A stretch of DNA of 64,000 nucleotides from Myxococcales bacterium (lineage in GTDB: Bacteria > Myxococcota_A > Polyangia > Haliangiales > Haliangiaceae). Within the stretch, counting starts at the first letter, position 1; each line of letters starts with the position of its first letter. The position numbers and the translations under genes were made by a program. The notes beneath the pieces are model-generated. The model was not told the origin of the DNA and ran no database searches. It saw nothing but the letters and a program-made list of their open reading frames with translations. The stretch covers positions 348,863 to 412,862 of the forward strand of contig JADJFN010000001.1 in assembly GCA_016708565.1 (NCBI GenBank), read 5' to 3'. Of the stretch, positions 6,285 through 43,359 are shown in pieces.

Positions 6285-9703
<3,419 letters not shown>

Positions 9704-9707
<4 letters not shown>

Positions 9708-12700
9708 AGCGCACCTACGCGATCACCGTCTACGAGCGCAAGGTCGAGGGCACGCTGACCTGGACGCCGCTGGTGCCGCCGGGGTTGATCGCGGCGCTGA
9801 GCGGCAAGAGCGAGGTGCGGCTGCGCGAGCAGCTGGGCAAGCTGCTGGCCGCGGCGGTGCGCCAGGTCGAGCCCGAGCAGCACGAGCTGTTCGAGACCGC
9901 GCCCGGCACCCGGCTGCACCACGTGTCGCTGGATCTCAACCTGCGCGAGCGCGGGCGGGTCGGCGGGCGGTTCCCGCTGGTGCTCGAGCCGCGGTGGTTC
10001 ACCGACGCGCGCCAGCGGCTGCTCGCGTACCACCCGGCGGATCCCAGCGCGTGGTTCGACGCCGACGACGTCCACGAGGTCGAGCGGCTGGCGGCGCACT
10101 TCGCGCGCCAGGCGTGGGCCAGCGACGACGTCACCGCGCTCGAGGCCAAGAAGAGCGCGGCCAAGGAGCGGCTGATCACGGTGTCGTTCGACCTGGCGCC
10201 GCGGACGCTGCTCGATCGCGCCAAGGCCGCGGCCGAGGGCAAGCAGCGGGCCGGGCTGGCGCGGTCGGTGCGCCAGCACCTGGCGCAGCTCGGCGTCGAC
10301 CAGACCGCGCGCGCGATCGACGGCACCTTGCCGATGGGCGTGCCCCGGCCGGCCTACCGGGCCCAGCTGGCGCGGCTCCTGGGCGGGCCGCGGCCGCGCT
10401 CGACGGTGCTGGTGGGACGTCCGGGATCCGGACGCGCGACGTTGCTGGCGCGCTGGGTCGGCGATCGGCTCGAGGCCGACGGCTGGTACCTGCACCGCAA
10501 CGCCGATCGCGTGCACCGGGTGTGGCGGCTGTCGGGCAAGCGGCTGATCGCGGGCATGCAGTACTTCGGCGACTGGGAGGACCGGCTGCTCGATCTGGTG
10601 ACCGACGCCCGCGCCCACCGCGGCCTCCTGTGGTTCGACGATCTGCACCTGTTCGGGCGGCTGGGCGTGACCCGGCAGTCGGAGCGCTCGTTCGCCGACT
10701 TCTTCCGCGGCCCGGTGCAGCGCGGCGAGCTGACGATCGTCGCCACCGCGACCCGCGAGCAGCTGGCGCGGCTGGAGGACGACGCGCCGTCGTTCGCGCA
10801 GCTGTTCGCGCGGGTCGCGGTCGAGCCGACCGACGCCGCCGAGACCGCGGCGCTGATGCTGGCCGAGGTGCGCCGGCTCGAGGCCGAGCACCCGGTCGAG
10901 GTCCACCCGTTCACGCCGCGGACGGTCTACGAGCTGGCCACCAGCCTGTACCCGTGGACCGCGACGCCGGGCGGGCCGATCGACATGCTGCGCAAGCTGG
11001 TGGCCGCCGCCGGGCCGCGGCCGGCGCCGGGGGCGCGGCGGGCGCTGCCGCCCGAGGCCGCGGTGGCGCAGGCGGCGCGCGACACCGGCCTGCCCGAGCA
11101 CCTGATCACGCTCGACGCGCCGCTCGATCCGGCGGCGGTGACCGCGCACTTCGCGGCCCGGGTGATCGGCCAGGACGAGGCGGTGGCGGTGGCCACCGAC
11201 GTGGTGGTCAAGGTGCGCGCCGGGTTGACCGACCCCGGGCGGCCGCTCGGCGTGTACCTGTTCACCGGCCCCACCGGCACCGGCAAGACCGAGCTGGCCA
11301 CCGCGCTGGCCGAGTACCTGTACGGCGAGCGCCGCCGGCTGGTGCGGCTCGACATGAGCGAGCTGGCCGGCCCCGACGCGGTGGCGCGGCTGATCGGCGA
11401 CCGCTTCACGCCCGACGGCCTGCTCACCAGCCGGATCCGCGAGCAGCCGTTCGCGGTGGTGCTGCTCGACGAGATCGAGAAGGCCCACCCGTCGGTGCTC
11501 GGGCTGCTCTTGCAGCTGTTCGACGAGGGCCGGCTGACCGACGCCGGCGGCGAGGTCGCGAGCTTCCGCCACGCGGTGATCGTGATGACCTCGAACCTGG
11601 GCGCGCGGGTGCAGCAGCCGATCGGGTTCGGCGACTCGACCGAGGCCGTGCTCGGGCAGATCGCCAAGGCCGTGCGCGAGTTCTTCCCGCCCGAGCTGTG
11701 GAACCGCATCGATCGCGTGGTGCGGTTCCGGCCGTTGACCGCCGAGGTCGCGGCGCGGGTGGTCGACAAGGAGCTGGCCAAGCTCCTGGGCCGGCGCGGC
11801 CTGCGCGAGCGCGACGTCTTCGTCTACGCCGGCCGGGCGGTGCGCGAGCGCGCGGTGGCGCAGGCGTTCGATCCGCGGTTCGGCGCGCGCACGGTCAAGC
11901 GCTGGCTCGAGGAGCACGTCGCCGGCGCGCTGACCGAGGCGTTGACCGAGGCGCCGCCGGCGCGGATGACCGTGGCCCGGCTGCGCGAGGAGGCCGGCGC
12001 GATCGCGGTGACGCTCGAGCTGGTGCCCGAGGCGGTCGCGTGGGGCGGCGGCTTCCCGCTGATCGAGGCCCGCGAGCTGTCGGCGGCGGCGCTGGTGCCG
12101 GCGGCCGAGGCGATGGCCGATCGCATCGACGCGCTCCTGGCCACCGATCCGGTGGGGCGGGCGCTGGCCACGTTGCGGGCCCGGCCCGACGGCGAGCGCG
12201 GGCGGTACTTCGTCGAGCACTTCGCCGACGAGCTGGCGGCGCTGCGGACGACGCTGGTCGGCCGCCGCCGGGCCCGGCCGGGGCCGATCGCGCCCGAGGC
12301 CCACGAGGAGCACGACCTCGAGGCCTGGCCGCGCGAGGCCCACGTCGAGAAGAGCGGCGCGTGGTCGCAGCGCCGCGAGGTGCGCCGCTACGATCCGCGC
12401 TCCGGCGATCGCGCGCCCAAGGCCGCCGCCGGCCAGGCGGCGACGCTGGCGGCGCTGGCGCGCGCCGAGCTGCTGCTCGGCCACGTCGACGAGCTGGCCG
12501 ATCCCGACGCCCACGTCGTGACCGTGCTGGTCACGCCGGTCGGCGTGGTCGGCGGCGGGCCGCGGCCGCTGGGCTGGGGCCTGCTCGAGGCGCTGCGCGC
12601 GGTCGCCGATCAGGCGATGGCGCGCACCAAGGACGGCCGGATCGAGGCCTACCAGGCGCCGGCGGTCGGCCACGTGCAGCGCGCGTTCGCGGTGCGCGAT

Positions 12701-13072: not shown

Positions 13073-15339
<2,267 letters not shown>

Positions 15340-18363: not shown

Positions 18364-19538
18364 GCCGACACGTCCAGCGTGACGCCGTCCCAGGCCAGCA
18401 CGTCGCCGACGATCAGCTGCACCCGGCCGGCGCCGATGCGATCCTCGCCCAGCGTGAACGGCCCGGCCGCGCGGCCCAGCCACGGCGCGCCGGCGGTGAA
18501 CGCGACCTCGCACGGCAGCCCGGCCGGCGCCAGGTCGATCACCTGATCGGGCCGCCCGATCACCAGCCGCCGGCCGCGGTCGAGGCCGCTGGCGACGCGC
18601 AGGTACGCGACCCCGTCGATCACCTCGAACTCGAGCCGGCAGTCCTCGCCCAGCTCGACCGCGCCGCGGCCGGCCAGCGGCACCTTGCCCGCCACCGGCA
18701 GCCCGCCGATCAGCGTGCCGTTGCGCGAGCCGGCGTCGCCGATCGTGAACCCGTCGCCGCCGACGGTGATCTCGGCGTGGCGGCGCGACACCCCGCCGGC
18801 GCGCAGCGGCAGATCGCACACCGCGTCGCGGCCCATCGCGACCAGGGGCCGGACGCTCACGATCACCGCGTCGCCGCCGCGCGGGCGCAGCTCGACCTTG
18901 CCGCCGCTGATCAGATCGGCGGTGAGCGCGTCGAGCACGCGCTGGCGATCGTCGGACGGCTCGGCGGCCAGGCTGCGCGTCAGCGCGGCGCGCGCCTCGC
19001 CGCGGCGCCCGAGCCGGCGGTGCAGCTCGTAGTCGGCGAAGGCGTCGCGCGCCGACTGCTCGGCGGTGGCGCGGCGCTCGTCGGCGGCCAGCGTGTCCTC
19101 GACGCGATCGATCAGGCCGGCGTCGGAGTAGGCCTGGGCCGCGCCGGCCAGCTCGCCGATCGCGGCCAGCGCGTCGCCGGCCTCGCGGTGGGCGCCGCCG
19201 GCCACGAGCAGCGCCGCCGCCTCGCGCACCCGCTCGCGATCGCGCGCGGTGGCGACGCCCTCGGCCTTGGTCTTGGCGTACAGCGCGCGGCCCAGCGCCG
19301 CGGAGGCCTGGGCCACCAGCGCCGGCTCGTCGCCGGCCCAGTGCACCGCGTCGCGCAGCGCGGCCAGCTCGGCGGCGCGATCGGCGGCGCGCGCGGCCCG
19401 CGCCAGGTGCATGCGCACCGCGCCGGCGCGATCGCCGGCCAGGCCGTAGTGGGTCGCGGCGGTGTCGGGATCGCCCGCGGCCTCGGCGGCGCGCGCGGCG
19501 CGCAGGTCAGTCGAGAACAGCTGGCGGAAGATGCCCAC
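18360..19538 (-). CDS. FHA-domain protein with an N-terminal helical/TPR-like region.
   Basis: The FHA core is MGRDAVCDLPLRAGGVSRRHAEITVGGDGFTIGDAGSRNGTLIGG. A GTG start is at 19536-19538. A TATAAT hexamer lies 9 nt upstream on the coding strand. Confidence 0.7.
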
Positions 19539-19587
19539 GCGAGGGTCGATTATACAGCCCGGCGTGGGCCCTCAGCGCCGGTCAGTT

Positions 19588-19692
19588 CGTTTCGCTCGAG
19601 CACCGGAGGACGCGTCGGGAGTCTCGCGTCGCGGGGGGAGGCTCGATCCCGGCTTTGCCGGGATCGAGGGGGGCTCGGCGACGAGCCCCCTG
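19588..19692. repeat. Structured repetitive intergenic element, intact copy. It contains three consecutive hairpins: GACGCG-N10-CGCGTC, GATCCCGG-ctttg-CCGGGATC and GGGGGGCTCG-gcgac-GAGCCCCC.
   Basis: The 22-nt core gacgcgtcgggagtctcgcgtc also occurs at 30988-31009. The motifs ggggggaggctcg and gaggggggctSggcgacSagccccctg also occur at 32051-32110. Confidence 0.5.
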
Positions 19693-19696
19693 GAAC

Positions 19697-21538
19697 TCAA
19701 GGAAGCGCGGCGCCGAAGCGCGCCTGGTACTCGGTGGCGAGCTGGGCCTTGGCGGCGGCGTCGCCGGCGCGGTCGAGGGCCTTGCCCAGCGCGCGGTAGG
19801 CCTGCGCCAGCTCGGGCTCGGCGGCGATCGCCGCGCGCAAGGACGCGATCCCGGCCGGCAGCTTGTTGCCCTGGGCCAGCATCACGCCGCGCAGGTACAG
19901 CGCCCAGGCCGCGCCGCTCCACGCGGCGATCGCCTGATCGCACAGCTTGCGCGCGGCCGGCACCGCCTGCTGGCGCAGCGCCAGGTCGCACTCGGCGGCG
20001 AGCAGCCCGGGCGCGCCGCGCCAGCGCTTGCCCGCGGCCTTGGCCAGCCGCTTGGCGTCGGCGAACTTGTCGGCGTAGATCGCCGCCAGCAGGTCGCGCA
20101 CCGCCGCGACGTAGGCCGGCTCGTCGAGCGGCGCGATCTTGCCGGGGACGCCGCCCGGGGGCAGGCCGTAGCGGCCGCGGGTGCGCAGCACCCAGGCCAG
20201 CACGTCGGCGCCCACGCCCGGCTGACGCTGCTCGGCGCTCCGCGCGGCGCGCTCGGCGTCGGACACCAGCCCCAGGGCCAGGTACGCCTCGGCGGTGGCC
20301 ATCCACACCGGCACGCGATCGCCGGCCATCGCGTCGACCGCCGCCAGGTGGGCGCGCGCGCCGGCGAGGTCGCCGCCGGACGCCAGCGCGCCGGCCAGCA
20401 CCATCCGCGGTCGCGGATCGTCGGGCGCGACGTCGGCCACGCGCTGGCACGCCTTCACCGCGGCGTCGTCGGCGGCGCCGTCGCGCGCCACCCGCAGCTC
20501 GCAGATCGCCATCCGCACGTCGGGCGACGCCGGGTACGCGGCGGCGATCGCGTCGAGCTCGGCCAGCGCCTCGCCGAGCTTGCCGGCCTGGGCCAGCCGC
20601 CGCGCCGCCAGCAGCTGCTCGTTGGCCGCGCCGGCCAGGTCGACCGCGGCGCCGCCGCTGGCGTCGACCATGACCCGCAGCGCGGCGAGGAACTCGCCCT
20701 TGGCGTCGTCGTCCCAGCCGCCCCACGGGTTGCCCTCGAAGTAGCTGGTCAGCCGCGCCGCCAGCGTGCGCACGTCGAAGCTGCCCCGCGGCGCCAGCCA
20801 GGTCTCGAGCGACAGCTGCATGATCGCGCGGCTCGGCTCCGACAAGGTCGCCATCTCGGCGCTGTAGATCGCGGCCAGCAGCCAGGTCGGATCGTTCTCG
20901 TGCGGCGCGCCCAGCGTGTGGGCCAGCTCGTGCAACAGCACGACGGTCTGCTTGTGGCGGCGCCGCGCCAGGTGCACCCGCTCGCGCTCGGCGTCGCTGG
21001 TGTCGGGGAACAGCTGCGTGAACGCCTTGCGCTCGGCGCCGTCGGCGTAGCCGCGCACGACGACGTGGCGGCCCAGCGGGCGCGCCACGCCGAGCTCCTC
21101 GAAGCTGCCCTCGACCAGGCTCAGCGCCGACGCGTAGCCGATGACCCAGTCGACGTCGTCGCCGGGATCCTTGGCCTCGAGCGCCGCCAGCACGTCACCC
21201 AGCTTGCGATCGGCCGAGCGCGCGGGCCACGGCTCGATGGCCTTGGCCTCGAGGCGGACGCCGACCGCCGGCACCAGGAACTGGTTGGCCTCGTCGAGCT
21301 GCTCCTCGATCTGCTGCCGCCAGTGCAGCGTGCCGGCCCGGTAGTCCTCGTCGACCCAGACCCGCACGCGCGCGGTGCGGGCCTCGCCCGGCAGCGGCCG
21401 CGCCACCTCGAGCCCGGCCGGCAGCGCCTTGCTCAGGTTGCGCCGCTGGATCTCCTTCTCCTTGGCCGCGTTCGAGAACGCGTTGGTGTAACAGCCGGCG
21501 GCCAGGGCCGCGATCGCACACAGGAGAGCGGCGCGCAT
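19697..21538 (-). CDS. Zinc-metalloprotease-like lipoprotein with TPR repeats.
   Basis: A LAAGC lipobox and an HELAHTLGAPHE (HExxH) motif. The C-terminal half is built of TPR-like Ala/Leu-rich repeats. Confidence 0.65.
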   Translation of the reverse strand: MRAALLCAIAALAAGCYTNAFSNAAKEKEIQRRNLSKALPAGLEVARPLPGEARTARVRVWVDEDYRAGTLHWRQQIEEQLDEANQFLVPAVGVRLEAKAIEPWPARSADRKLGDVLAALEAKDPGDDVDWVIGYASALSLVEGSFEELGVARPLGRHVVVRGYADGAERKAFTQLFPDTSDAERERVHLARRRHKQTVVLLHELAHTLGAPHENDPTWLLAAIYSAEMATLSEPSRAIMQLSLETWLAPRGSFDVRTLAARLTSYFEGNPWGGWDDDAKGEFLAALRVMVDASGGAAVDLAGAANEQLLAARRLAQAGKLGEALAELDAIAAAYPASPDVRMAICELRVARDGAADDAAVKACQRVADVAPDDPRPRMVLAGALASGGDLAGARAHLAAVDAMAGDRVPVWMATAEAYLALGLVSDAERAARSAEQRQPGVGADVLAWVLRTRGRYGLPPGGVPGKIAPLDEPAYVAAVRDLLAAIYADKFADAKRLAKAAGKRWRGAPGLLAAECDLALRQQAVPAARKLCDQAIAAWSGAAWALYLRGVMLAQGNKLPAGIASLRAAIAAEPELAQAYRALGKALDRAGDAAAKAQLATEYQARFGAALP

Positions 21539-28731: not shown

Positions 28732-30919
28732 TCTCCCCCGTCCCCGGGTGCTGATCGTCGACGACGACGACATGACCCGCCTGCTCGCGACCGAGACCCT
28801 GGAGGGCGCGGGCTTCGAGGTGTTCGAGGCGGCCGACGGCGCGGCCGGCGTCGCCGCGCACGCCGAGCTGACGCCCGACCTGATGCTGCTCGACGTCAAC
28901 ATGCCCGGCCTCGACGGCTACGGCGTGTGCGCGCAGGTGCGGGCGCGGCCCGAGGGCAGCGCCACGCCGATCCTGGTGATGACCGCGCTCGACGACGTCG
29001 ACGCCGTCGAGCGCGCGTTCGCCGCCGGCGCGACCGACTTCCTGACCAAGCCGCTCAACCTGCCGCTCCTGGCCCACCGGGTGCGCTACCTGCTGCGCGC
29101 GGCCCAGGCGTTCCACGACGAGCGCGAGCAGGCGCAGGTGCTGGCGCGGGTGCAGCGGCTCGCGCGGCTGGCCCACTGGCGGGTCGACGCGGCCGGCTTC
29201 GCCTGGGCGTGCGACGTCGGCGCCGTGCTGTGGCCCGAGGTGGCGGCGTCGGTGCCGGCGCCGCGCTCGCTGCTGGCGCTGGTCCACCCCGACGATCGCG
29301 ACCTGGTCGCGACCGCGCTGACCACCACCGCGCCCCACCAGCTCGACTACCGGATGGTCCTGCCCGACGGCAGCGAGCGCCTGGTCCGCCAGGACGCCGA
29401 GGTCATCGACGACGCCGGGCGGCCGGTGCTGATCGGCGCCACCCAGGACGTCACCGAGCAGCGCGCGGCCGAGCGCCGGATCGCCCAGCTGGCGTTCTTC
29501 GACGATCTCACCGGCCTGCCCAGCCGCGCGTTCCTGCACCGGTTCTTGCGGCGGGTGCTGCTCGACGCGCGCGCCGCCGGCACGCCGGTGACGCTGATCA
29601 GCATCGGCATCGCGCTGGGCGCGGTGCCGGGCACCGTCAGCCCGACCGATCGCGACGAGCTGCGCCGGGCCATCGCCGCGCGGGTGGTCGAGCACGTGCG
29701 CGGCGCCGATCTCGACCTGCGGCTCGATCAGCCGGTCGGAGATCCCGACGCCTGGGTCGGCGGCGCGCTGCTGGCGCGGCCCGGCTCCGACGAGCTGGTG
29801 CTGGTGTTGCGCGACGCGCGCGCCACCGAGCCCGAGCCGGTGGCGGCGCGGATCGCGGCGGCGCTGGCGGTCGGCTACCGGGTCGGCGACCACGAGCTGT
29901 TCGTGACCTCGCCGGTCGGCATCGCGACCTCGGACGACTCCGGCGACGACCCGCGGACGCTGATCGAGCACGCCCGGGCCGCCAGCCACCAGGCCCGGGT
30001 CGCGGGCCAGCCGGTCCACCGCTTCTCGGCCGACGTGCTGCGCGCGGCGCGGCGCTCGGCCGACTTCGAGCGCCGGGTCCGCACCGCGGTCGCGCGCCTC
30101 GGCGATCCCGCCCGGGAGCCGGAGTTCACGCTCTACTACCAGCCCAAGATCGAGCGCGGCAGCGGCCGCACCGTCGGGGTCGAGGCGTTGATGCGGTGGT
30201 TCCCGCCCGACGGGCCGCCGATCTCGCCGGGCGAGTTCATCCCGGTGGCCGAGCGCTCCAACGCGATCTCGCTCCTCGGCGACTGGCTGCTGCAGGAGGC
30301 GTGCGCCCAGGGCGCGGCCTGGGTCGAGGCCGGCACGCCGATCCACGTCGCGGTCAACGTCTCGCCCCGGCAGCTGCGCTCGGTCGGCTTCGTCGAGCGG
30401 GTGGTCGCGAGCGCGGCCGCCGCCGGCTTCGATCTCGGCCTGCTCGAGATCGAGATCACCGAGCACGCCACCGTCGACGACTTCGATCAGGCGGCGGCGG
30501 TGCTGCACGCGCTGCGGGCGCGGGGCGCGCGGATCGTGCTCGACGACTTCGGCGTCGGCCAGTCGTCGCTGGCGTACGTCGCGCGGCTGCCGGTCGACGT
30601 GATCAAGATCGACCGCGCGTTCGTGGCCGGCCTCGGGCGCGACCCGGTCAGCGGCGCGATCGTCTCGGCGGTGATGGCGATGGCCGAGGCGCTCGACATC
30701 ACCGTGGTGGTCGAGGGCGTCGAGACCGCGCAGCAGGTGCGGATCCTGGGGCGCTACCCGGCGTGCGAGATCCAGGGTTACTACTGCGCGCGGCCGGCGC
30801 CGCCCGCCGAGCTGACGCCGTTCCTCACCGGGCGCTTCGCGTGGAACGTCGACGACGACGGCGCCGCGATCGAGATCGCCGTCGACGACGTGCCCGGCGA
30901 GGTCGTGCTGGCGTCGTGA
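28721..30919 (+). CDS. Response regulator receiver-PAS-GGDEF(degenerate)-EAL protein (likely a c-di-GMP phosphodiesterase).
   Basis: The receiver is [13 protein letters not shown]...[11 protein letters not shown]...KP. The GGDEF-like domain has GSDEL in place of GG[DE]EF. The EAL domain has [29 protein letters not shown] and a QGY(Y/F) motif. It overlaps the kinase gene by 11 nt. Confidence 0.8.
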
Positions 30920-30965
30920 CCTGGCCCGGCCGAGGGAGGTGCGGCGACCGGCCGGAGCCTGCACG

Positions 30966-31015
30966 TGTTTCGTTTGAGCCCCCGTCGACGCGTCGGGAGT
31001 CTCGCGTCCTGGGGG
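30966..31015. repeat. Left half of a second copy of the structured repeat element, truncated by the IS insertion. It ends with the 10-bp direct repeat gtcctggggg at 31006-31015.
   Basis: gtttcgtttgagcc...gacgcgtcgggagtctcgcgtc matches copy A at 19588-19630. Confidence 0.45.
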
Positions 31016-32044
31016 CTGACCATTGGCCAGTCCCGGGCGGGAGGGCGGGACGGCAGCGGCGGCGCGCGCGCAAGGCGGGATGATGCGGACCTGGGGTCCG
31101 CCAGGTTGCGATGCGGCCAACCACCGCCGCCCAGGTGACGCCCTTGGGCTTCCGGAGGAGGATGACGGCGTCGATCTCGTCGCGCGAGACTGGTCGCCGC
31201 TGGCAGTTCAGGGGTTGTGCGCGATAGCTGCAGGTGTTCAGCCCGATGGCCACGTGGCCAAGACGGTAGCCCACGGTGAACGCCGCGACGCTGCGGAGCA
31301 GCGAGTCCTGATGCCGCACGCGCCCGACTTCCAGGCCAGGTGGAACTCCTCGACGCGCCACCGCATCGTGTAGCCGACGATGACGTCGTGGGCCGCGGCC
31401 ATCGTGACGACCGACCGGTTGGTCAACAGGCGCCAGTGGATCGGCTCGGCACCGTCGGGTTGATGCCGCTCGCGCGCCTCGAGCGCGGTCACCGCGAACT
31501 GCTCGAAGGGCCCATGCCATCGCCCAGGGACGATCAGCTTGACCCACAGGCCCAAGCGACAGGCTGGGGGGAAGGCTCTGGGGGGGCGGGGGGGGCGGGC
31601 CGGTCGAGGTCCTCGCACGGTTGAGGGCGGCGGGGGGGCGCCCGTCCAGCGGATCACGCACCCCTGACTCACGAGCAGGCCGACACCGCCTGTAAGCCAC
31701 TCACGCCGGTGTTGCGCGTCGACAGCGGCCCAAGGCGTGCCGGCGGTCCGTCAGCCCCAGCGCGCCTGGTCGACCGGGACGAACACGATGTTGAACGCCG
31801 CGCTGCGCGCGCCCGCGCGAAACGCCGCCTGCTGCACTTCGTCTGCGACGACGGCGCGGTTCTCAAGCAACCGATACGCCGCCCGCGTGCGCCTAGCCTG
31901 GGTCAGGGTTGGGGGCCGTACCTACCGTCTGCGTCGCCAGGCTGCATCACCAAACGTCGACGTGGCCCCGCAAGCTGGCTATTCTGCACCTCGAGCAAAT
32001 CCACGGCCTTGGGCCGAAATTCCCGAGATGTGATCAATGGTCAG
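31016..32044. mobile_element. Decayed IS4/IS5-like insertion sequence (1029 bp). It has terminal inverted repeats CTGACCATTG...CAATGGTCAG and a 10-bp target-site duplication gtcctggggg.
   Basis: The inverted repeats and the direct repeats were read directly. GC content is about 64% against about 72% for the surroundings. Internal frameshifted minus-strand ORFs carry the transposase C-terminal signature Y-x2-R-x3-E-x6-K (YTMRWRVEEFHLAWK). Confidence 0.6.
31238..31672 (-). pseudogene. Transposase fragment (IS4 family-like), disrupted by frameshifts.
   Basis: HWRLLTNRSVVTMAAAHDVIVGYTMRWRVEEFHLAWKSG contains the YREK motif. A neighbouring frame (30825..31700 -) carries further transposase-like sequence. 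No intact full-length ORF is present. Confidence 0.5.
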
Positions 32045-32110
32045 GTCCTGGGGGGAGGCTCGTCGGGGACCTGGCCCCGACGAGGGGGGCTGGGCGACCA
32101 GCCCCCTGCC
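32045..32110. repeat. Right half of the IS-disrupted repeat copy. It begins with the direct repeat gtcctggggg and contains the hairpin GGGGGGCTGG-gcgac-CAGCCCCC.
   Basis: It matches the 3-prime half of copy A (19633-19692) after the IS and one duplicated copy are removed. Confidence 0.45.
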
Positions 32111-32112
32111 AC

Positions 32113-33068
32113 TCAGCGCATGAACGTGCGCCGCACCAGGTCGACCGCGCGTGGCCCGAGGGTCTCGCCGCGCCACGCCAGCGCGCGCGACACCACCAGC
32201 GCCTTGTCGGCCGGGTTGATCCGCGGCCGATCGGCGAACAGGCGCGGGCCGGCCGCGGCGATCTTGTCGAGGATGCGCATGCCGCCGTGCCACATCAGCG
32301 CCAGCTCGACCGCGAGGTCGGGGCCGACCACGTCGACCAGCGGGCGGGCGCGCTCGAACAGCGCCCGGGTGCGCGCCACCTCGTAGCGGACCAGCGCGCC
32401 GACCTGCGGCGTCGTGCGCCGGGCCTCGACGTCGGCCTCGCTGACGCCGAAGTGGCGCAGGTCCTCCTGCGGCACGTAGATCCGGCCCCGGGCGAGGTCG
32501 GCCGGCATGTCCTGGATCAGCCGCGCGAACGCCAGCCCGGTCGCCAGGTCGGCGGCGAACGCGTGCAGCTCGGGGGCGCGGTAGCCGCCGATGTACAACA
32601 GCAGGTGCCCGACCGGCTCGGCGGCCTCGCGGGTGTAGGCGCGCAGGTCGTTCCAGGTCGGGTAGCGCAGCGTCTCGAGATCGGTCCGGAACCCGGACAC
32701 CAGCTTGACGAACTCGGTGATCGGCAGGGCCAGCGACTTGATCGTCGCGGCCAGCGCGACGAACACCGGGTGCTCGGGCGGCTTGCCGAAGTAGGTCTGG
32801 TGCAGCAGCTCCTCCCAGCGATCGAGCTCGCGCGCGCGCCGGCCCTCGTAGGCCGGCTCGTCGGCGAAGTCGTCGGCGACCCGCGCGAACGCGAAGATCG
32901 CGAAGATGTGCTGGCGCAGGTTCGAGCGCGCGAAGATCGACGCCACCGGGAAGTTGTGGTGGTGGGCGCGGCACAGCGCCTCGCAGTAGCGGTAACAGGC
33001 GCCGACCTCGAGCGAGGGCGGCAGCGGGACGGCTTGGGCGGTGGCGCGGCGGTCGCCGATGCGGTGGA

Positions 33069-39222: not shown

Positions 39223-39291
39223 CGGCGAGCGCGCGGTGTTAGCACGGGGCTCGACGCGATGCCGAGTTCCCGGCGCCAACCGTGCGGTGGG

Positions 39292-41169
39292 CTACGGCGC
39301 GACCGCGGCAGAACCCGTGCCCGTCCCCGAACCCGAACCCGTCGCCGTGCCCGTCCCCGATCCCGTCCCCGATCCCGATCCCGTCCCCGATCCCGTCCCC
39401 GATCCCGATCCCGTCCCCGATCCCGATCCCGTCCCCGATCCCGTCCCCGATCCCGCGCCCACGCCGGCGTCGCCATCGTCGGCGGCCGGCGCGGCGTCCT
39501 CGGTGTCGGTGTCCTCGGTGTCGGTGTCCTCGGTGTCGGTGTCCTCGGTGTCCTCGTCCTCGTCGTCCTCGAAGTCGCCGCCGTCGTCGGCGCCGCCGTT
39601 GGCCTCGACCCAATCGGCGATCTTCGCCGTCTCGCAGGCCTTGGCCTCATCCGGCGCCTTCTTGCGGCAGTTGGTGACGTCGGTGAACAGGCCCAGGCAG
39701 TTCTCGCGCTCGAACTCGTCCTCGATGCCCTTGCACTCGTCCTGCTTCTTGACCGTGCCGTCGGGCAGGGTGACCTCGTCGACGTTGATCACCGCCTGGG
39801 CGCTGGACTTCACCACCGCCACCAGGCCGTCGAGGGTCCCGGTGGGCTTGGGCGGCGGCACCACGGTCAGGCTCGGCACGTAGGTCACGATCAACAGCGC
39901 CGCCATCACGGTGAACATGAATGGCAAGGTCGCGACCGTGACCTCCAGCAACGGTTTTCGAAACTTGAAGCTGGAGATGAACAGGTTGAGGCCGATCGGT
40001 GGGTGCAGGTAGCCGATCTCGAGGTTGAGCAAGAAGATCACGCCGAGGTGGTACGGGCTGACGTCGTACTCGTGGGCCACGGGCGCGATCAGCGGCACGA
40101 CGATCAAGATCGCCGAGAAGATGTCCATGACCATGCCGGTCAGGAGCAAGAGCCCGTTGAGCGCCAGCAGGAACGCCCACCGCGAGTCGATGTGGTCGCG
40201 GGTCCAGTGCACCAGCTTGGCGGGGACGCCCGCGGTCACCAGGTAGTTGGTCAGCGCGGTCGCCGAGTAGATGATGATGAAGATCGCGCCGATCAGCGCC
40301 ATCGACTCCTTGGTGATGGCCCACAGCGCCTGGGGCTTGAGGTCGCGGAAGATGCCCATCTCGACGATGATCAGGTACAGCACCGTCAGCGACGCGATCT
40401 GCGAGATGTCGCCGACGCCCTTGGCCAGGCCCAGCAAGATCAAGATCGGCAGGAAGATCACCGGCAGCGCGCCGGGCAGCGAGGCGAACAGCTCGCCCCA
40501 CTCGAACTTCTGGCGCGGCACCTTCTTGATGATCGCGATCGCCACCACCAGCGCCGACAGCATCAGGATCAGCAGCGCGCCCGGGATGATGCCGGCGAAG
40601 TAGAAGCGCTCGGTGGCCCACTCCCATTGCCAGTTCTCGGGCTTGGGCTGGATGCGCTGCAGGCCATAGATCGTGCCGAACAGGATGATCGGCAGGGCCG
40701 GCGGGAACAGCAGGCCGACCGAGCCGGTGCCGGTCACCAGGCCGAGCGCGAACCGCTCGGGGTACCGCTGCTTGATCAGCGCCGGCATCAACAGGCCGCC
40801 GAGCGCGACGATCGTGACGCCCGAGGCGCCGGTGAACGTGGTGTACACCGAGCACGCCAGGATCGTGACGATGCCGAGCCCGCCCGGCACCCAGCCCAGC
40901 GCGGCGTTGGCGAAGCGCACCAGCCGCTCGGCGGTCTTCGACGCGGCCATCACGTAGCCGGCGTAGATGAACAGCGGGATGCTCGAGAAGATCGTCGACT
41001 TGTCGCCGGTGCCGAGGCTGAAGAACTCGTAGGCGAAGCCGCCGAAGTCCTTCTCGAAGCCCTTGGTGCCGGTCTCGGCGCCGATCGCGGTCAAGAACAA
41101 CATCACCGCGAACAGCGGCGAGCCGGCGACGAACGCCAGCACCAGCAGGATGATCAGGAGCGTCAGCAT
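39292..41169 (-). CDS. dctM: TRAP transporter large permease (DctM family) with an unusual ~190-aa C-terminal tail. The tail is acidic, contains four Cys residues and ends in a (GSGT)n low-complexity stretch.
   Basis: A ~435-aa polytopic DctM-like core (LLMPALIKQRYPERFALGLVTGTGSVGLLFPPALPIILFG...). It is followed by ...DECKGIEDEFERENCLGLFTDVTNCRKKAPDEAKACETAKI...DDEDEDTEDTDTEDTDTEDTDTED...GSGTGSGTGSGSGTGSG. The whole region is one continuous frame. Confidence 0.8.
   Translation of the reverse strand: MLTLLIILLVLAFVAGSPLFAVMLFLTAIGAETGTKGFEKDFGGFAYEFFSLGTGDKSTIFSSIPLFIYAGYVMAASKTAERLVRFANAALGWVPGGLGIVTILACSVYTTFTGASGVTIVALGGLLMPALIKQRYPERFALGLVTGTGSVGLLFPPALPIILFGTIYGLQRIQPKPENWQWEWATERFYFAGIIPGALLILMLSALVVAIAIIKKVPRQKFEWGELFASLPGALPVIFLPILILLGLAKGVGDISQIASLTVLYLIIVEMGIFRDLKPQALWAITKESMALIGAIFIIIYSATALTNYLVTAGVPAKLVHWTRDHIDSRWAFLLALNGLLLLTGMVMDIFSAILIVVPLIAPVAHEYDVSPYHLGVIFLLNLEIGYLHPPIGLNLFISSFKFRKPLLEVTVATLPFMFTVMAALLIVTYVPSLTVVPPPKPTGTLDGLVAVVKSSAQAVINVDEVTLPDGTVKKQDECKGIEDEFERENCLGLFTDVTNCRKKAPDEAKACETAKIADWVEANGGADDGGDFEDDEDEDTEDTDTEDTDTEDTDTEDAAPAADDGDAGVGAGSGTGSGTGSGSGTGSGSGTGSGTGSGSGTGSGTGTATGSGSGTGTGSAAVAP
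39300..39560. repeat. Coding microsatellites inside the DctM tail: (cccgatcccgtc)n hexamer/dodecamer repeats and (ctcggtgtcggtgtc)x3.5.
   Basis: Read directly on the plus strand at 39303-39470 and 39478-39535. Confidence 0.6.
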
Positions 41170-42202: not shown

Positions 42203-42231
42203 TCCGAAACGCAACCGCCCCGCACGAGGCG
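42203..42231 (+). terminator. Hairpin AACCGCCCCGC-acgag-GCGGGGCGGTT followed by GTT. It is part of a convergent terminator region that also includes hairpins at about 42277-42294 and 42312-42331.
   Basis: Perfect 11-bp stem, read directly. It lies between convergent gene ends. Confidence 0.4.
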
Positions 42232-42336
42232 GGGCGGTTGTTCCCTCAGACGGCCCCGCGCTGAACGCTCCGGGCCGTTTCGGGTGGGGGCCCCGGCGCA
42301 TGCCGGGGGAGGGTCTTACGAAAGACCCTCTCTAGG

Positions 42337-43359
42337 TCACGGCGCGGGGTTCTTCGCGCGGTACTCGTCGCGGTACTTCAGCACCATCTCGAGCTCGGCC
42401 TTCGAGTAGACCTTGCCGGTCAGATCGGCCCAGACGTCCTTGGCCGCCTTGTCGAAGTCGGCCAGGAGCTCCGGCGTGGTCGCGCTGATCTTCACGCCCT
42501 TGCGCTCCATCTGCTTCTTGGCGCTCTCGTTGTCCTTGCGGATCTGCTTGCGGAGCGTCTTCTGCATGCCCTTGGAGATCTTGAGCACCAGCTTCTGGTC
42601 CTCGGCCGTCACCTTCTTGTAGGCGTCCAGCTTGATGACCGTGGCGGCGATGCCGTAGCTCATCGGCATCGAGGTCATGTACTTGACCTTGGTGTTCCAC
42701 TGCAGCGCCACGGCGGCCAAGGGCGAGCCGTAGCACGCGTCGATGCGGCCGGTGGTCAGGTTGGGCTCGACCTCGGGCACGCCCAGCGGCACGCCCGAGA
42801 TGCCGAGCCGCTTGTACATGGCGCGGACGATCGCGTCGTCGCCCCACATCCACACCTTCGAGCTCTTGAGGTTGCCGACGCTGGTGATCTCGGACTTCGA
42901 GAGCAGGTAGATCCAGCCGACGTCGCCGCGATCGCCGAGCTTGTAGCCCTTGGCCTCGAACTTCTTGACGAAGTACGGCCACATCTTGTCGGCGACGTAG
43001 TCGAGCTCCTCGACCGTCGCGAACATGCGCGGCAGCTCGAGCACGCGGATCGACTCTTCGACCATCGACAGGCCGACCGAGGTCACGGCGGCGCCGTCGA
43101 GCTGGCCGAGGTTGATCTTGCGGACGACGTCGCGCTCGTCGCCCTGGACGCCGCCGGCGTAGTACTTGACCTTGACCCGGCCCTCGGTCTTCTTGTCGAT
43201 CTCGGCGGCGCCCTTGCCGAGGATCTTCATCCACGAGCTGCCGTCGGGCGCCAGGGTGGCCAGGCGGATCTCGACGTTGTCGGCCGCCGCCGGGGCGATC
43301 GCCGCGAGGGAAGCCGCGACGGCGGTCGCGAGGGTGAGACGGTTGACAAGGCTGCGCAT
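42337..43359 (-). CDS. dctP: TRAP transporter substrate-binding protein (DctP family).
   Basis: The signal peptide is MRSLVNRLTLATAVAASLAAIAPAAA. The body is a DctP-like periplasmic binding-protein sequence. A GGAG lies 8 nt upstream of the ATG. The ATG overlaps the stop codon of the tatT-like gene (TGATG). Confidence 0.8.
   Translation of the reverse strand: MRSLVNRLTLATAVAASLAAIAPAAADNVEIRLATLAPDGSSWMKILGKGAAEIDKKTEGRVKVKYYAGGVQGDERDVVRKINLGQLDGAAVTSVGLSMVEESIRVLELPRMFATVEELDYVADKMWPYFVKKFEAKGYKLGDRGDVGWIYLLSKSEITSVGNLKSSKVWMWGDDAIVRAMYKRLGISGVPLGVPEVEPNLTTGRIDACYGSPLAAVALQWNTKVKYMTSMPMSYGIAATVIKLDAYKKVTAEDQKLVLKISKGMQKTLRKQIRKDNESAKKQMERKGVKISATTPELLADFDKAAKDVWADLTGKVYSKAELEMVLKYRDEYRAKNPAP

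Follow-up and report, generated by a model that had tools for sequence, protein, structure and literature searches.

A modular, hairpin-forming repeat at stop codons in a Myxococcales genome

Among the closest described counterparts of the element reported here are the REP, BIME and REPIN sequences, which are likewise short, hairpin-forming, multi-copy extragenic repeats. The REPINs of enterobacteria and pseudomonads are mobilised by RAYT transposases, and REPs stabilise the upstream mRNA. Like the present element, REP and BIME sequences lie after stop codons, between convergent genes or within operons, are transcribed in mRNAs, have compensatory stems and a mosaic or modular make-up, and are hot spots for IS insertion. 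However, a REP is a 20-40-nt palindrome with a GT[AG]G head, whereas the element spans 128-145 nt with three unlike hairpins, and none of the aligned copies has a conserved GTAG or GTGG head abutting a hairpin. REPs also occur as inverted pairs (REPIN, BIME), in contrast to the single or directly tandem copies found here, and differ from the element in its strict polarity to the upstream gene, with the stop codon inside the element. The locus had been called possibly REP-like in a sequence-only reading of this DNA, which is apt for its behaviour but not for membership of the REP family proper.

In 36 pneumococcal genes the stop codon is supplied by a BOX repeat, with no evident truncation (PMC3049150), and SPRITE is a terminator-like repeat clustered at the 3' ends of coding sequences (Croucher et al. 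2011, PMC3049150). BOX (boxA-boxB-boxC) resembles the element in being modular with variable module content, but its ends pair as inverted repeats and its mobilisation is thought to be MITE-like, whereas the element has neither end pairing nor terminal inverted repeats (TIRs). SPRITE has a long U-rich tract that is absent from the element. Both repeats have low-G+C Firmicutes as hosts and are unrelated to the element in sequence.

Correia and ERIC MITEs are similarly non-autonomous, about 100-200 nt long, highly structured when transcribed and polymorphic between strains, yet they have TIRs, a defined target duplication and both orientations, while the element lacks TIRs and has essentially one orientation. 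The PATEs of IS200/IS605 share with it the lack of TIRs, subterminal hairpins, a fixed junction sequence (CTCAG here) and strand-specific structure; however, their end hairpins are alike, whereas those here are dissimilar and the boundaries are not always at CTCAG. We know of no TnpA or TnpB partner of the element. An integron attC site was considered and rejected, as there are three separate hairpins instead of one long imperfect one, no GTTRRRY core, and scattered housekeeping neighbours. No small interspersed repeats (REP or MITE families) were found described in the literature for Myxococcota or myxobacteria.

Copies of the element in the window

A covariance model search of the window, the whole 64-kb stretch of DNA analysed, found three copies, W1, W2 and W3. 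Two had been proposed, both of which are real; the third, at 42245-42339, is diverged. The features are as follows.

19555-19699, + strand: W1, intact copy, delimited as inserted DNA against an empty orthologous site; covariance model score 140.5 bits
19571-19608, + strand: left arm of W1, with CTCAG (19571-19575), T-rich GTTTCG (19589-19594) and GAGCACCGG
19609-19630, + strand: hairpin 1 of W1, GACGCG / 10-nt loop TCGGGAGTCT / CGCGTC
19633-19641, + strand: G-rich linker of W1, GGGGGGAGG, corresponding to GGGTGGGGG in the W3/L072 subfamily
19642-19668, + strand: hairpin 2 of W1, 12-bp stem, CTCGATCCCGGC-TTT-GCCGGGATCGAG
19669-19690, + strand: hairpin 3 of W1, 9-bp stem, GGGGGCTCG-GCGA-CGAGCCCCC
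19691-19699, + strand: tail of W1, 6-nt TGGAAC and then TCA, the stop codon of the - strand TPR gene
19697-21538, - strand: TPR gene, ORF GC3 0.97, TGA in frame
30930-30948, + strand: probable remnant of an older copy, CCGAGGGAGGTGCGGCGAC, from sequence comparison with L001
30964-31015, + strand: W2, left half, with left arm, hairpin 1 (30987-31008) and first copy of the target duplication; 54 bits
31016-32044, - strand: decayed IS4-family (Tn5/IS50-like) insertion sequence inside W2, with CTGACCATTG inverted termini
32045-32115, + strand: W2, right half, with duplicate, G-run, hairpins 2 and 3, tail and TCA; 74 bits
42245-42339, + strand: W3, variant without hairpin 1; covariance model score 26.4 bits, E 2e-6

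W1 had been placed at 19588-19692, but it is longer: judged against the empty orthologous site, the inserted DNA runs from about 19555 to 19696, and the TCA at 19697-19699 is the stop codon of the neighbouring gene. The three adjacent hairpins described for this interval are present in the sequence, hairpin 2 being longer than first drawn, with 12 bp. In RNAfold predictions for both strands, hairpins 2 and 3 appear as drawn and hairpin 1 in a slightly shifted register; the folding z-scores are -2.6 (+ strand) and -4.35 (- strand), and none of 200 shuffles folded as well. The left-arm motifs of W1 are conserved among the copies, both in the alignment and in the printed flanks of the copies.

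As proposed, the 5' half of the element recurs at 30966-31015 and the 3' half at 32045-32110. The 22-nt core of the former, GACGCGTCGGGAGTCTCGCGTC, occurs exactly twice, at 19609 and 30987, with a chance expectation of 0.00. In W2, hairpin 2 is CTCGTCGGGG-ACCTGG-CCCCGACGAG and hairpin 3 is GGGGGCTGG-GCGA-CCAGCCCCC. The two loci were also correctly placed at the 3' ends of genes, the TCA being the stop codon of the TPR gene at W1 and, at 32113-32115, of a squalene/phytoene-synthase gene (319 aa) at W2.

The DNA that splits W2 is flanked by a 10-bp duplication, GTCCTGGGGG, at 31006-31015 and 32045-32054. It encodes a fragment homologous to residues 278-345 of the Tn5 transposase (phmmer, E 3e-12), and its ORFs have a weak, sub-threshold match to DDE_Tnp_1 (Pfam). 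By its sequence, that is by transposase homology, inverted termini and 10-bp duplicate, the insert is a remnant of an IS4-family element of the Tn5/IS50 type. Like IS50/Tn5 it has termini starting with CTGAC and a 9-10 bp target duplication, but it differs in being 1029 bp long and decayed, with a broken reading frame and a fragmentary gene. A 73%-identical relative is found at the identical junction (CCTGGGGG/CTGACC) in other assemblies. Joining the halves of W2 and deleting one 10-bp duplicate had been predicted to restore the full element, and exactly this allele, ...CTCGCGTCCTGGGGGGAGGCTCG..., is found uninterrupted in contigs L110 and L111, whose EAL protein is identical to that of the window. 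Within the window's own species, W2 has uninterrupted alleles (L110/L111), alleles with the IS (L113/L116/L117) and alleles with a module deletion of about 80 nt (L112/L118). The probable older remnant, CCGAGGGAGGTGCGGCGAC, matches the end of hairpin 2 together with the 5' arm and loop of hairpin 3 in L001, and forms the left edge of the ~80-nt indel of L112/L118.

The order of modules in W3 is CTCAG, GTTTCGG, GGGTGGGGG, hairpin 2 (CCCCGGC-GCAT-GCCGGGG), hairpin 3 (GAGGGTCTT-ACGA-AAGACCCTC), the tail TCTAGG and TCA, which at 42337-42339 is the stop codon of dctP. L131 carries W3 at the orthologous dctP site, and L130 does not. A conserved terminator-like hairpin and GCGTTTCGG lie downstream of the W3 site with or without the element. 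In L131 the hairpin-3 module is duplicated in tandem, and the duplicate carries its own GTGA.

Distribution and variation of the family

At least 17 distinct element loci were found; at least 15 further loci are in Myxococcales/Kofleriaceae-like metagenomes and MAGs, beside unrelated genes. Scans for the exact 20-mer and 18-mer identified true copies in two GTDB MAGs bearing the label Myxococcales and at 11 distinct metagenome loci (16 contigs; 8 from one metagenome, Ga0075163). The exact 20-mer had only two matches among the 185,579 genomes of GTDB, suggesting that the hairpin-1 subfamily is rare or lost at contig ends. Metagenome matches to the 18-mer were kept only when a G-run and the hairpins came after; 76 of the 95 were chance matches in unrelated genes, and 3 more were hairpin 1 alone in unrelated DNA. 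A viral origin was also rejected, the 4 IMG/VR matches to the 18-mer all being fortuitous ones within coding sequence, not surrounded by an element. In 83 kb of related loci, the covariance model detected 2 further copies and a partial one in tandem; at ten unrelated loci its scores were 127-151 bits. The density, by extrapolation from about 150 kb, is roughly one copy per 25-30 kb.

Seven aligned copies are 91-99% identical over about 115 nt, and their flanking genes are unrelated. Paralogy of flanking genes was rejected as the source of the similarity: these genes encode a TPR protein, squalene/phytoene synthase, DctP and, judged by C-terminal sequences, an aldehyde dehydrogenase, SucA and an outer-membrane protein. 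One copy has a sucA-like gene on one side and a sucB-like gene on the other. The hosts are uncultured Myxococcales, and the proteins encoded next to the element have their closest named relatives in Kofleriaceae.

On the element strand, the modules are ordered as left arm (CTCAG...GTTTCGG...GAGCACCGGTCG), hairpin 1 (invariant), G-run, hairpin 2 (variable), hairpin 3 (GCGA loop), 6-nt tail and TCA. In the most uniform subfamily, the distance from one CTCAG to the other is about 128 nt, and copy length reaches about 145 nt in W1. Copies differ through the loss of modules, deletions within the element, duplication in tandem and insertion of an IS: hairpin 1 is missing from many copies (W3, L034b, L042b, L112), internal deletions are seen in L073 versus L092 and in the first L072 copy, and copies are single or in direct tandem (L072, L131), never in inverted pairs. 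Read-through or SECIS-like coding after the TGA was rejected, since the length of hairpin 2 differs (27 nt in W1, 26 nt in W2) and modules are gained and lost, which leaves no conserved reading frame.

Comparison of orthologous sites shows that the element is inserted DNA, not ancestral spacer. The TPR-FHA spacer is 17 nt long in L126/L127/L129 versus 158 nt in the window, with protein length at the junction unchanged, and SQS_PSY is 91% identical in the empty-site sister species. Filled and empty orthologous sites differ in the stop codon (TAG versus TGA) with the same protein length. After the SQS_PSY stop codon, the element is absent in three related species. Contigs end inside the element in 5 of 8 cases with the TPR gene and 3 of 9 with the EAL gene, 3 more of the latter ending in the IS; the element accounts for short-read contigs of this organism stopping at certain gene ends.

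Hairpin conservation and position at stop codons

In the 12 aligned copies, which had been chosen for carrying the hairpin-1 core, the 18-nt core CGCG-TCGGGAGTCT-CGCG and the next TC are identical in 12/12, while the outer two 5' bases vary. Hairpin 2 varies in sequence between subfamilies, with pair-keeping changes on both sides in 7 of its 9 predicted pairs. In hairpin 3, 96.3% of cells are paired, 6/9 pairs have double changes, and none of 500 shuffles reached the observed score. As judged from these alignments, hairpins 2 and 3 have been preserved by compensatory substitutions.

The terminal TCA is the in-frame TGA of the adjacent ORF (GC3 0.94-1.00) in 14 of 15 loci, with a single polarity, and the spacing of TGA, 6 nt and then the 9-bp G+C stem is constant in 14/15. 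By frame statistics, which are ambiguous in a few cases, 9 loci have a co-directional and 6 a convergent left neighbour, and a gene never starts on the right side of the element (15 loci). To our knowledge, this coupling to stop codon and gene polarity is stricter than that of REP, ERIC or Correia elements. The base after TCA is G in 13 of 15 loci against an expected 55% (binomial p ~0.01).

The ends do not form TIRs, the left 35 nt scoring 6.0 against the reverse-complemented right 35 nt, with a shuffle mean of 6.1. CTCAG is found at both ends in the uniform subfamily, but the inserted DNA runs past the left CTCAG by 16 nt in W1 and 5 nt in W3, so that CTCAG as a simple target duplication is not upheld at these two copies; beyond the left CTCAG, W1 and L002 have 10 nt (GGCGTGGGCC) in common. 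A conserved + strand stop codon in the left arm (GTGAG, GTAAG, GTAGG) was rejected given its inconsistent frame to the upstream genes, and this variation fits a wobble or mismatch opposite an invariant partner. Among the 24 window ORFs scanned against Pfam, there was neither a HUH or other transposase nor a RAYT gene.

The GCGA/GTGA loops, several GGA motifs and the G.U pair of hairpin 1 all fall on the + strand. The GCGA loop, of GNRA type, and the G.U pair favour the strand antisense to the adjacent gene, and these strand features are easier to reconcile with a single-stranded DNA intermediate or with RNA from the + strand than with a function in the 3'UTR.

Origin and possible effects of the repeat

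W1 is probably a copy of a lineage-restricted, non-coding, modular interspersed repeat that would be transcribed in antisense as the start of a 3'UTR, and a new REP/BIME/BOX-like family is the best reading of the repeat. The original proposal of a REP-like family with a second copy split by an IS is upheld: further copies at unrelated loci, covarying hairpins and the pre-insertion allele were all found. The repeat would have spread in trans, now or formerly, by an enzyme or a recombination process, which may read the folded single strand together with a target containing a stop codon, and positions directly after stop codons, where copies do no harm, may be the only ones at which they persist. 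After insertion, the element would be transcribed in antisense orientation as the first ~100-140 nt of the 3'UTR of the upstream gene. The 9-bp G+C stem 6 nt past the stop codon would be expected to block 3' exonucleases, and a terminating ribosome would likely have to melt it; mRNA stability or translation termination may be modulated as a side effect.

Possible, if not favoured, is a selected cis-acting module of the 3'UTR, acting as a terminator without a U-tract, an mRNA 3'-end stabiliser or a termination brake, with spread being secondary. This reading overlaps in part with that of an interspersed repeat. The polarity and distance to the stop codon fixed in 14/15 loci, the stems maintained by compensatory evolution and the retention of W3 at the orthologous dctP site in two species are consistent with such a module. 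E. coli REP hairpins at most about 15 nt from a stop codon reportedly stall terminating ribosomes, a finding attributed to Liang, Rudd and Deutscher in 2015. However, the best-formed loops are on the strand that is not mRNA, no function is shared by the flanking genes, a single species has strains with different module content and tolerates an IS within the element, and orthologous sites of close relatives lack the element with neighbouring genes unchanged. The lack of a U-tract and the conserved terminator-like hairpin that follows W3 regardless of the element also argue against it. A terminator or attenuator in the classical sense, as the sequence-only reading had envisaged, is not supported: there were 0 terminator-like sites on either strand at 19300-19900 and no U-tract after any hairpin, a separate hairpin lies downstream of W3, and one copy sits between the sucA-like and sucB-like genes. 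The + strand features and a hairpin-1 loop that is invariant wherever present in at least three genomes would suit a trans-acting small RNA transcribed from that strand, antisense to the gene's 3' end and either sequestering a protein or pairing as antisense. Such an RNA is nevertheless very improbable, as hairpin 1 is missing from many copies, an IS interrupts one copy without apparent consequence, no promoter-like site was found at W1 and no terminator accompanies it, and Rfam 15 gave 0 matches in the whole window at gathering thresholds (best sub-threshold match 17.7 bits against a cut-off of 100 bits). The small structured RNA suggested earlier likewise lacks positive support, the presence of the element varying between strains and species.

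A non-autonomous single-stranded DNA transposon of the IS200/IS605 (PATE) or REP/RAYT type, moved by a HUH tyrosine transposase, appears unlikely. Under this scenario, subterminal hairpins would be recognised on one strand, with insertion beside CTCAG (C-TGA-G on the other strand). The lack of TIRs, the subterminal hairpins (hairpin 3 stops 10 nt short of the right end), the CTCAG on either side of uniform-subfamily copies, the G after TCA in 13/15 loci and the strand-specific wobble pair and GNRA-type loop all point in this direction. However, the two ends of the element bear different hairpins, in contrast to the similar ones of IS608-type ends. In addition, W1 and L002 share GGCGTGGGCC beyond the left CTCAG and the W1 insert reaches 16 nt further, the GT[AG]G head of REPs is missing, the 64-kb window showed no Y1 transposase, and the 14/15 agreement with gene direction exceeds what replication-strand bias alone would give. 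Quite improbable is a mobile DNA that homes to stop codons, inserting precisely at or in place of them in one orientation, where an enzyme or RNA-guided system would act on one folded strand with hairpin 1 as its recognition module. This would explain the TAG versus TGA at filled and empty sites with protein length unchanged, the tandem hairpin-3 duplicate carrying its own GTGA, and the best-formed loops on the strand antisense to the gene; if real, this way of targeting would be one so far undescribed among small repeats of bacteria. At about 75% G+C the genome has many hairpins, and single-fold z-scores are modest, but chance resemblance of G+C-rich intergenic hairpins or ordinary terminators can practically be dismissed given the 22-mer expectation of 0.00, the 127-151 bits at ten unrelated loci and the 91-99% identity over about 115 nt.

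With the interspersed repeat as the preferred explanation, a small interspersed repeat family is documented in Myxococcota, and the covariance model built here can serve to annotate it. In other respects the element is a genomic feature of an ordinary kind. A rough extrapolation suggests that a few hundred genes in each genome may bear a very stable stem-loop 6 nt past the stop codon, and such genes would provide a natural experiment on the influence of 3'-proximal structure on termination and mRNA decay in a bacterium of 75% G+C, while the near-perfect coupling to stop codon and polarity hints at a targeting mechanism.

Anatomy and variation of the element

The intact copy of the element, W1 (19555-19699), contains three adjacent hairpins.

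Hairpins of W1, in window coordinates
19609-19630: hairpin 1, GACGCG / TCGGGAGTCT / CGCGTC
19642-19668: hairpin 2, a 12-bp stem with a TTT loop, CTCGATCCCGGC-TTT-GCCGGGATCGAG
19669-19690: hairpin 3, GGGGGCTCG-GCGA-CGAGCCCCC

Inspection of 19400-19900 and 30800-32300 bore out every statement of a sequence-only reading about the sequence there; hairpin 2 was present as claimed, though its stem had been drawn too short, the actual one being 12 bp. With RNAfold, both strands of W1 gave hairpins 2 and 3 as drawn, whereas the register of hairpin 1 was slightly shifted. The fold z-score was -2.6 for the + strand and -4.35 for the - strand, with 0 shuffles folding equally well, and the 22-nt core has just two occurrences in the window against 0.00 expected.

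The most uniform subfamily has a 128-nt element ordered CTCAG-AGCGCGTGAGTCTTTCGGTCGAGCACCGGTCG-[hairpin 1]-GC-GGGGGGAGG-[hairpin 2]-[hairpin 3]-TGGAAC-TCAG. Seven of the aligned copies are 91-99% identical, namely W1, L004, L034a, L044, L080, L092 and L095 (L-numbers are contigs from other public assemblies and metagenomes, a and b separate copies on one contig); the remaining aligned copies are 62-82% identical. Wherever hairpin 1 is present its 18-nt core and the next two bases are invariant while its outer 5' bases vary, but all 12 aligned copies were retrieved via this core, and its invariance alone carries little information. Hairpin 2 comes in several sequence versions with compensatory differences, its fifth pair being A-T, T-A or G-C among copies. 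Hairpin 3 is 96.3% paired over 12 distinct versions, with changes on both sides at six of nine pairs, over 20 cells; its pairing score was reached by none of 500 shuffles, and slid controls gave 36-57% pairing. Of the 12 versions of hairpin 3, ten have a GCGA loop, one GTGA and one ACGA.

The family is modular. Hairpin 1 is missing from W3 (42245-42339), L034b, L042b and L112, and a different, longer middle module (...CGACGTCCCCGA...GGTTCA...GCCACCTGCCTCCACCTGGG...) replaces hairpin 2 at L007:1330-1400 and L042:11560-11660 (L042a). Internal deletions between short repeats are found in L073 relative to L092 and in the first L072 copy, and tandem arrangements in L072 and L131. In L004 (1620-1680), of the uniform subfamily, the left arm GTGAGTCTTTCGG can pair with the hairpin 1 loop and 3' arm TCGGGAGTCTCGC on the + strand only, a structure alternative to hairpin 1.

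Filled, empty and interrupted sites

In a sister species whose SQS_PSY (squalene/phytoene synthase) protein is 91% identical, the orthologous spacer between the TPR and FHA genes is 17 nt long (CCG TAG ATCTATACTCGCGAGCC GTG), whereas that of the window measures 158 nt and keeps the native TATA[A/C]TCG...GTG part beside the FHA gene. This puts the inserted segment at ~19555-19696. With or without the element the TPR protein is equally long, its stop being TAG at the empty and TGA at the filled site. As the left CTCAG of W1 (19571-19575) lies 16 nt inside the inserted DNA, and as W1 and L002 have GGCGTGGGCC in common to its left, CTCAG cannot be explained as a plain target duplication. W1 extends to the left in GGCGTGGG (19530-19569), a stretch with complementarity to CCCACGC in the start region of FHA. 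CCCACGC includes the GTG start as read on the - strand, and the hairpin predicted from the two would hide that codon. In the window the FHA GTG has a TATAAT box 10 nt upstream; the ortholog has TATACT.

The second copy, W2 (30964-31015 and 32045-32115), is interrupted by an insert at 31016-32044 that carries CTGACCATTG at both ends in inverted orientation and is bordered by a 10-bp duplication, GTCCTGGGGG. A reading-frame fragment within it aligns to Tn5 transposase residues 278-345 (E 3e-12) and its match to Pfam DDE_Tnp_1 is weak; the insert is a decayed IS4-family element. Among public assemblies, contigs encoding exactly the window's EAL/GGDEF response regulator revealed three alleles of this locus. 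The full copy that had been reconstructed by joining the halves exists in L110 and L111, where W2 is unbroken and the junction (...CTCGCGTCCTGGGGGGAGGCTCG...) is exactly as predicted. In L113, L116 and L117 an IS occupies the junction at which the window's IS sits. L112 and L118 lack ~80 nt (left arm and hairpin 1) between two GGGAGG repeats and retain the G-run and hairpins 2 and 3. In the second allele (L113:3156-3277, L116:2777-2829 and L117:2574-2626, compared with window 31016-31102) found in other assemblies of the same species, the IS end sits at the identical junction CCTGGGGG|CTGACCATTGG and is just 73% identical to the window's IS, although the flanks are identical; this could reflect repeated hits at a hot spot, conversion among copies of the IS or chimeric assembly.

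At the W2 site, three related species have no element behind the SQS_PSY stop. In L121 (3955-4015), from the 91% species, this stop is directly followed by a 60-nt W3-like element that bears the motif GAGCGTTCAGCG and is absent at 3955 in L119 and L120, from other population samples; the stop codon is TAG in the filled L121 allele and TGA in the empty ones. At the orthologous dctP site, L131 (3426-3560) carries a W3-type element and L130 none. In L131 the hairpin 3 module is tandemly duplicated together with GTGA, so the stop codon appears to be part of the repeated unit. Downstream of W3, between dctP and a small convergent gene, a terminator-like hairpin at 42213-42239 (AACCGCCCCGC-ACGA-GGCGGGGCGGTT, then GCGTTTCGG on the -, dctP, strand) is conserved in the window, L130 and L131. 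It is probably the native dctP terminator, which places W3 inside the dctP 3'UTR, upstream of it. The stretch 39287-39472 is a tandem repeat of hexamer periodicity, with GAYCCC and GTCCCC units spaced by 12 and 18 nt; it lies immediately past the start of a putative dctM ORF (39292-41169, - strand) and overlaps its first codons.

The element also behaves as a repeat in assemblies: five of eight contigs with the identical TPR protein, from independent assemblies, end inside it, 12-112 nt past the TPR stop, and of nine contigs with the EAL protein three stop within the element and another three within the IS.

Position at stop codons and distribution

The element terminates in TCA, and at 14 of 15 loci these bases, read on the opposite strand, form the in-frame TGA of an ORF; GC3 in the frame ending there is 0.94-1.00, the coding signature of this 75% G+C genome. 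The stop codon is followed by 6 nt (11 nt in L054) and then hairpin 3. The genes so terminated are unrelated: they encode the TPR protein, squalene/phytoene synthase and DctP, and three others resemble, in their C-terminal sequences, aldehyde dehydrogenase, SucA and an outer-membrane protein. The left neighbour is a co-directional gene start at nine loci and a convergent gene end at six, a split read from frame statistics with a few ambiguous cases, and at no locus does the right end face a gene start. Only the diverged L042a was found in the polarity opposite to its flanking genes. Since G follows TCA at 13 of 15 loci, the right end reads CTCAG, which also opens the left arm in W1, W3 and most uniform-subfamily copies.

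A covariance model built from 12 copies (R1) gave scores of 140 bits for W1, 74 for the right half of W2 and 54 for its left half, and found the third window copy, W3, which lacks hairpin 1, at 42281-42330 (26 bits, E 2e-6). Over 83 kb of related loci it found two more hairpin-1-degenerate copies, L034b and L042b, and a truncated tandem copy in L072; over ~90 kb of related species' loci it found none. Extrapolated from only ~150 kb and leaving out search-anchor copies, the density is about one copy per 25-30 kb. A 20-mer from hairpin 1, scanned against GTDB with one genome per species, led to two Myxococcales MAGs, both with all three hairpins laid out in full, the first unchanged and the second and third altered compensatorily. 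An 18-mer metagenome scan gave 95 hits, most of them fortuitous matches within coding sequence; true copies were present on 16 contigs from 11 distinct loci, and eight of these contigs came from metagenome Ga0075163. A viral sequence scan gave chance matches only. At L052:6731, L079:3057 and L084:4946, in Ga01815xx/Ga01816xx metagenomes, the exact hairpin 1 22-mer stands in unrelated A-rich context with the rest of the element absent. Three further stretches of the window are paralogous to one another (7780-8149, 11235-11604 and 14540-14855, at intervals of 3455 and 3305 nt); judging from the gene table of L102, in the coordinates of that contig, they seem to be parts of three tandem AAA+/ClpB-like genes.

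Nature of the repeat and its likely mode of spread

The element is a lineage-restricted, multi-copy, non-coding and modular repeat with stems under selection, gained and lost between species and between strains, and placed at stop codons in one polarity. The sequence-only reading was right in its main point, that the repeat is a REP-like family and that an IS divides one of its copies. In its behaviour the element resembles REP/BIME and the pneumococcal BOX and SPRITE repeats; BOX provides 36 genes with their stop codon, and SPRITE copies gather at CDS 3' ends (Croucher et al. 2011, PMC3049150). It differs from REPs in lacking both their defining short GT[AG]G-headed palindrome and inverted pairs, from MITEs in having no terminal inverted repeats, and from intrinsic terminators in having no U-tract; neither a sigma-70 promoter nor an Rfam family match was found for it.

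The IS remnant was the only transposase seen in a scan of 24 window ORFs. The element would likely spread in trans, by a mechanism reading the folded single strand, with copies surviving where they are harmless, directly after stop codons. On the mRNA it would form the first ~100-140 nt of the 3'UTR, where its very stable stems should hinder 3' exonucleases, and because hairpin 3 begins so close to the stop codon a terminating ribosome would have to open it. For E. coli REPs that lie near a stop codon, an effect on the terminating ribosome has been reported. The strand antisense to the adjacent gene carries the GNRA-type loop of hairpin 3 and a G.U pair in hairpin 1; together with the left-arm pairing, these strand-specific features are a hint of a single-stranded DNA intermediate, or of a + strand RNA, and not of a role at the mRNA level. 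Comparison with known systems spoke neither for nor against a single-stranded-DNA (IS200/IS605-like) origin.

Literature searches turned up no description of a myxobacterial repeat family of this sort, and the element is a new family of a known kind of repeat. What makes it worthy of follow-up is its near-obligatory, polar coupling to stop codons.
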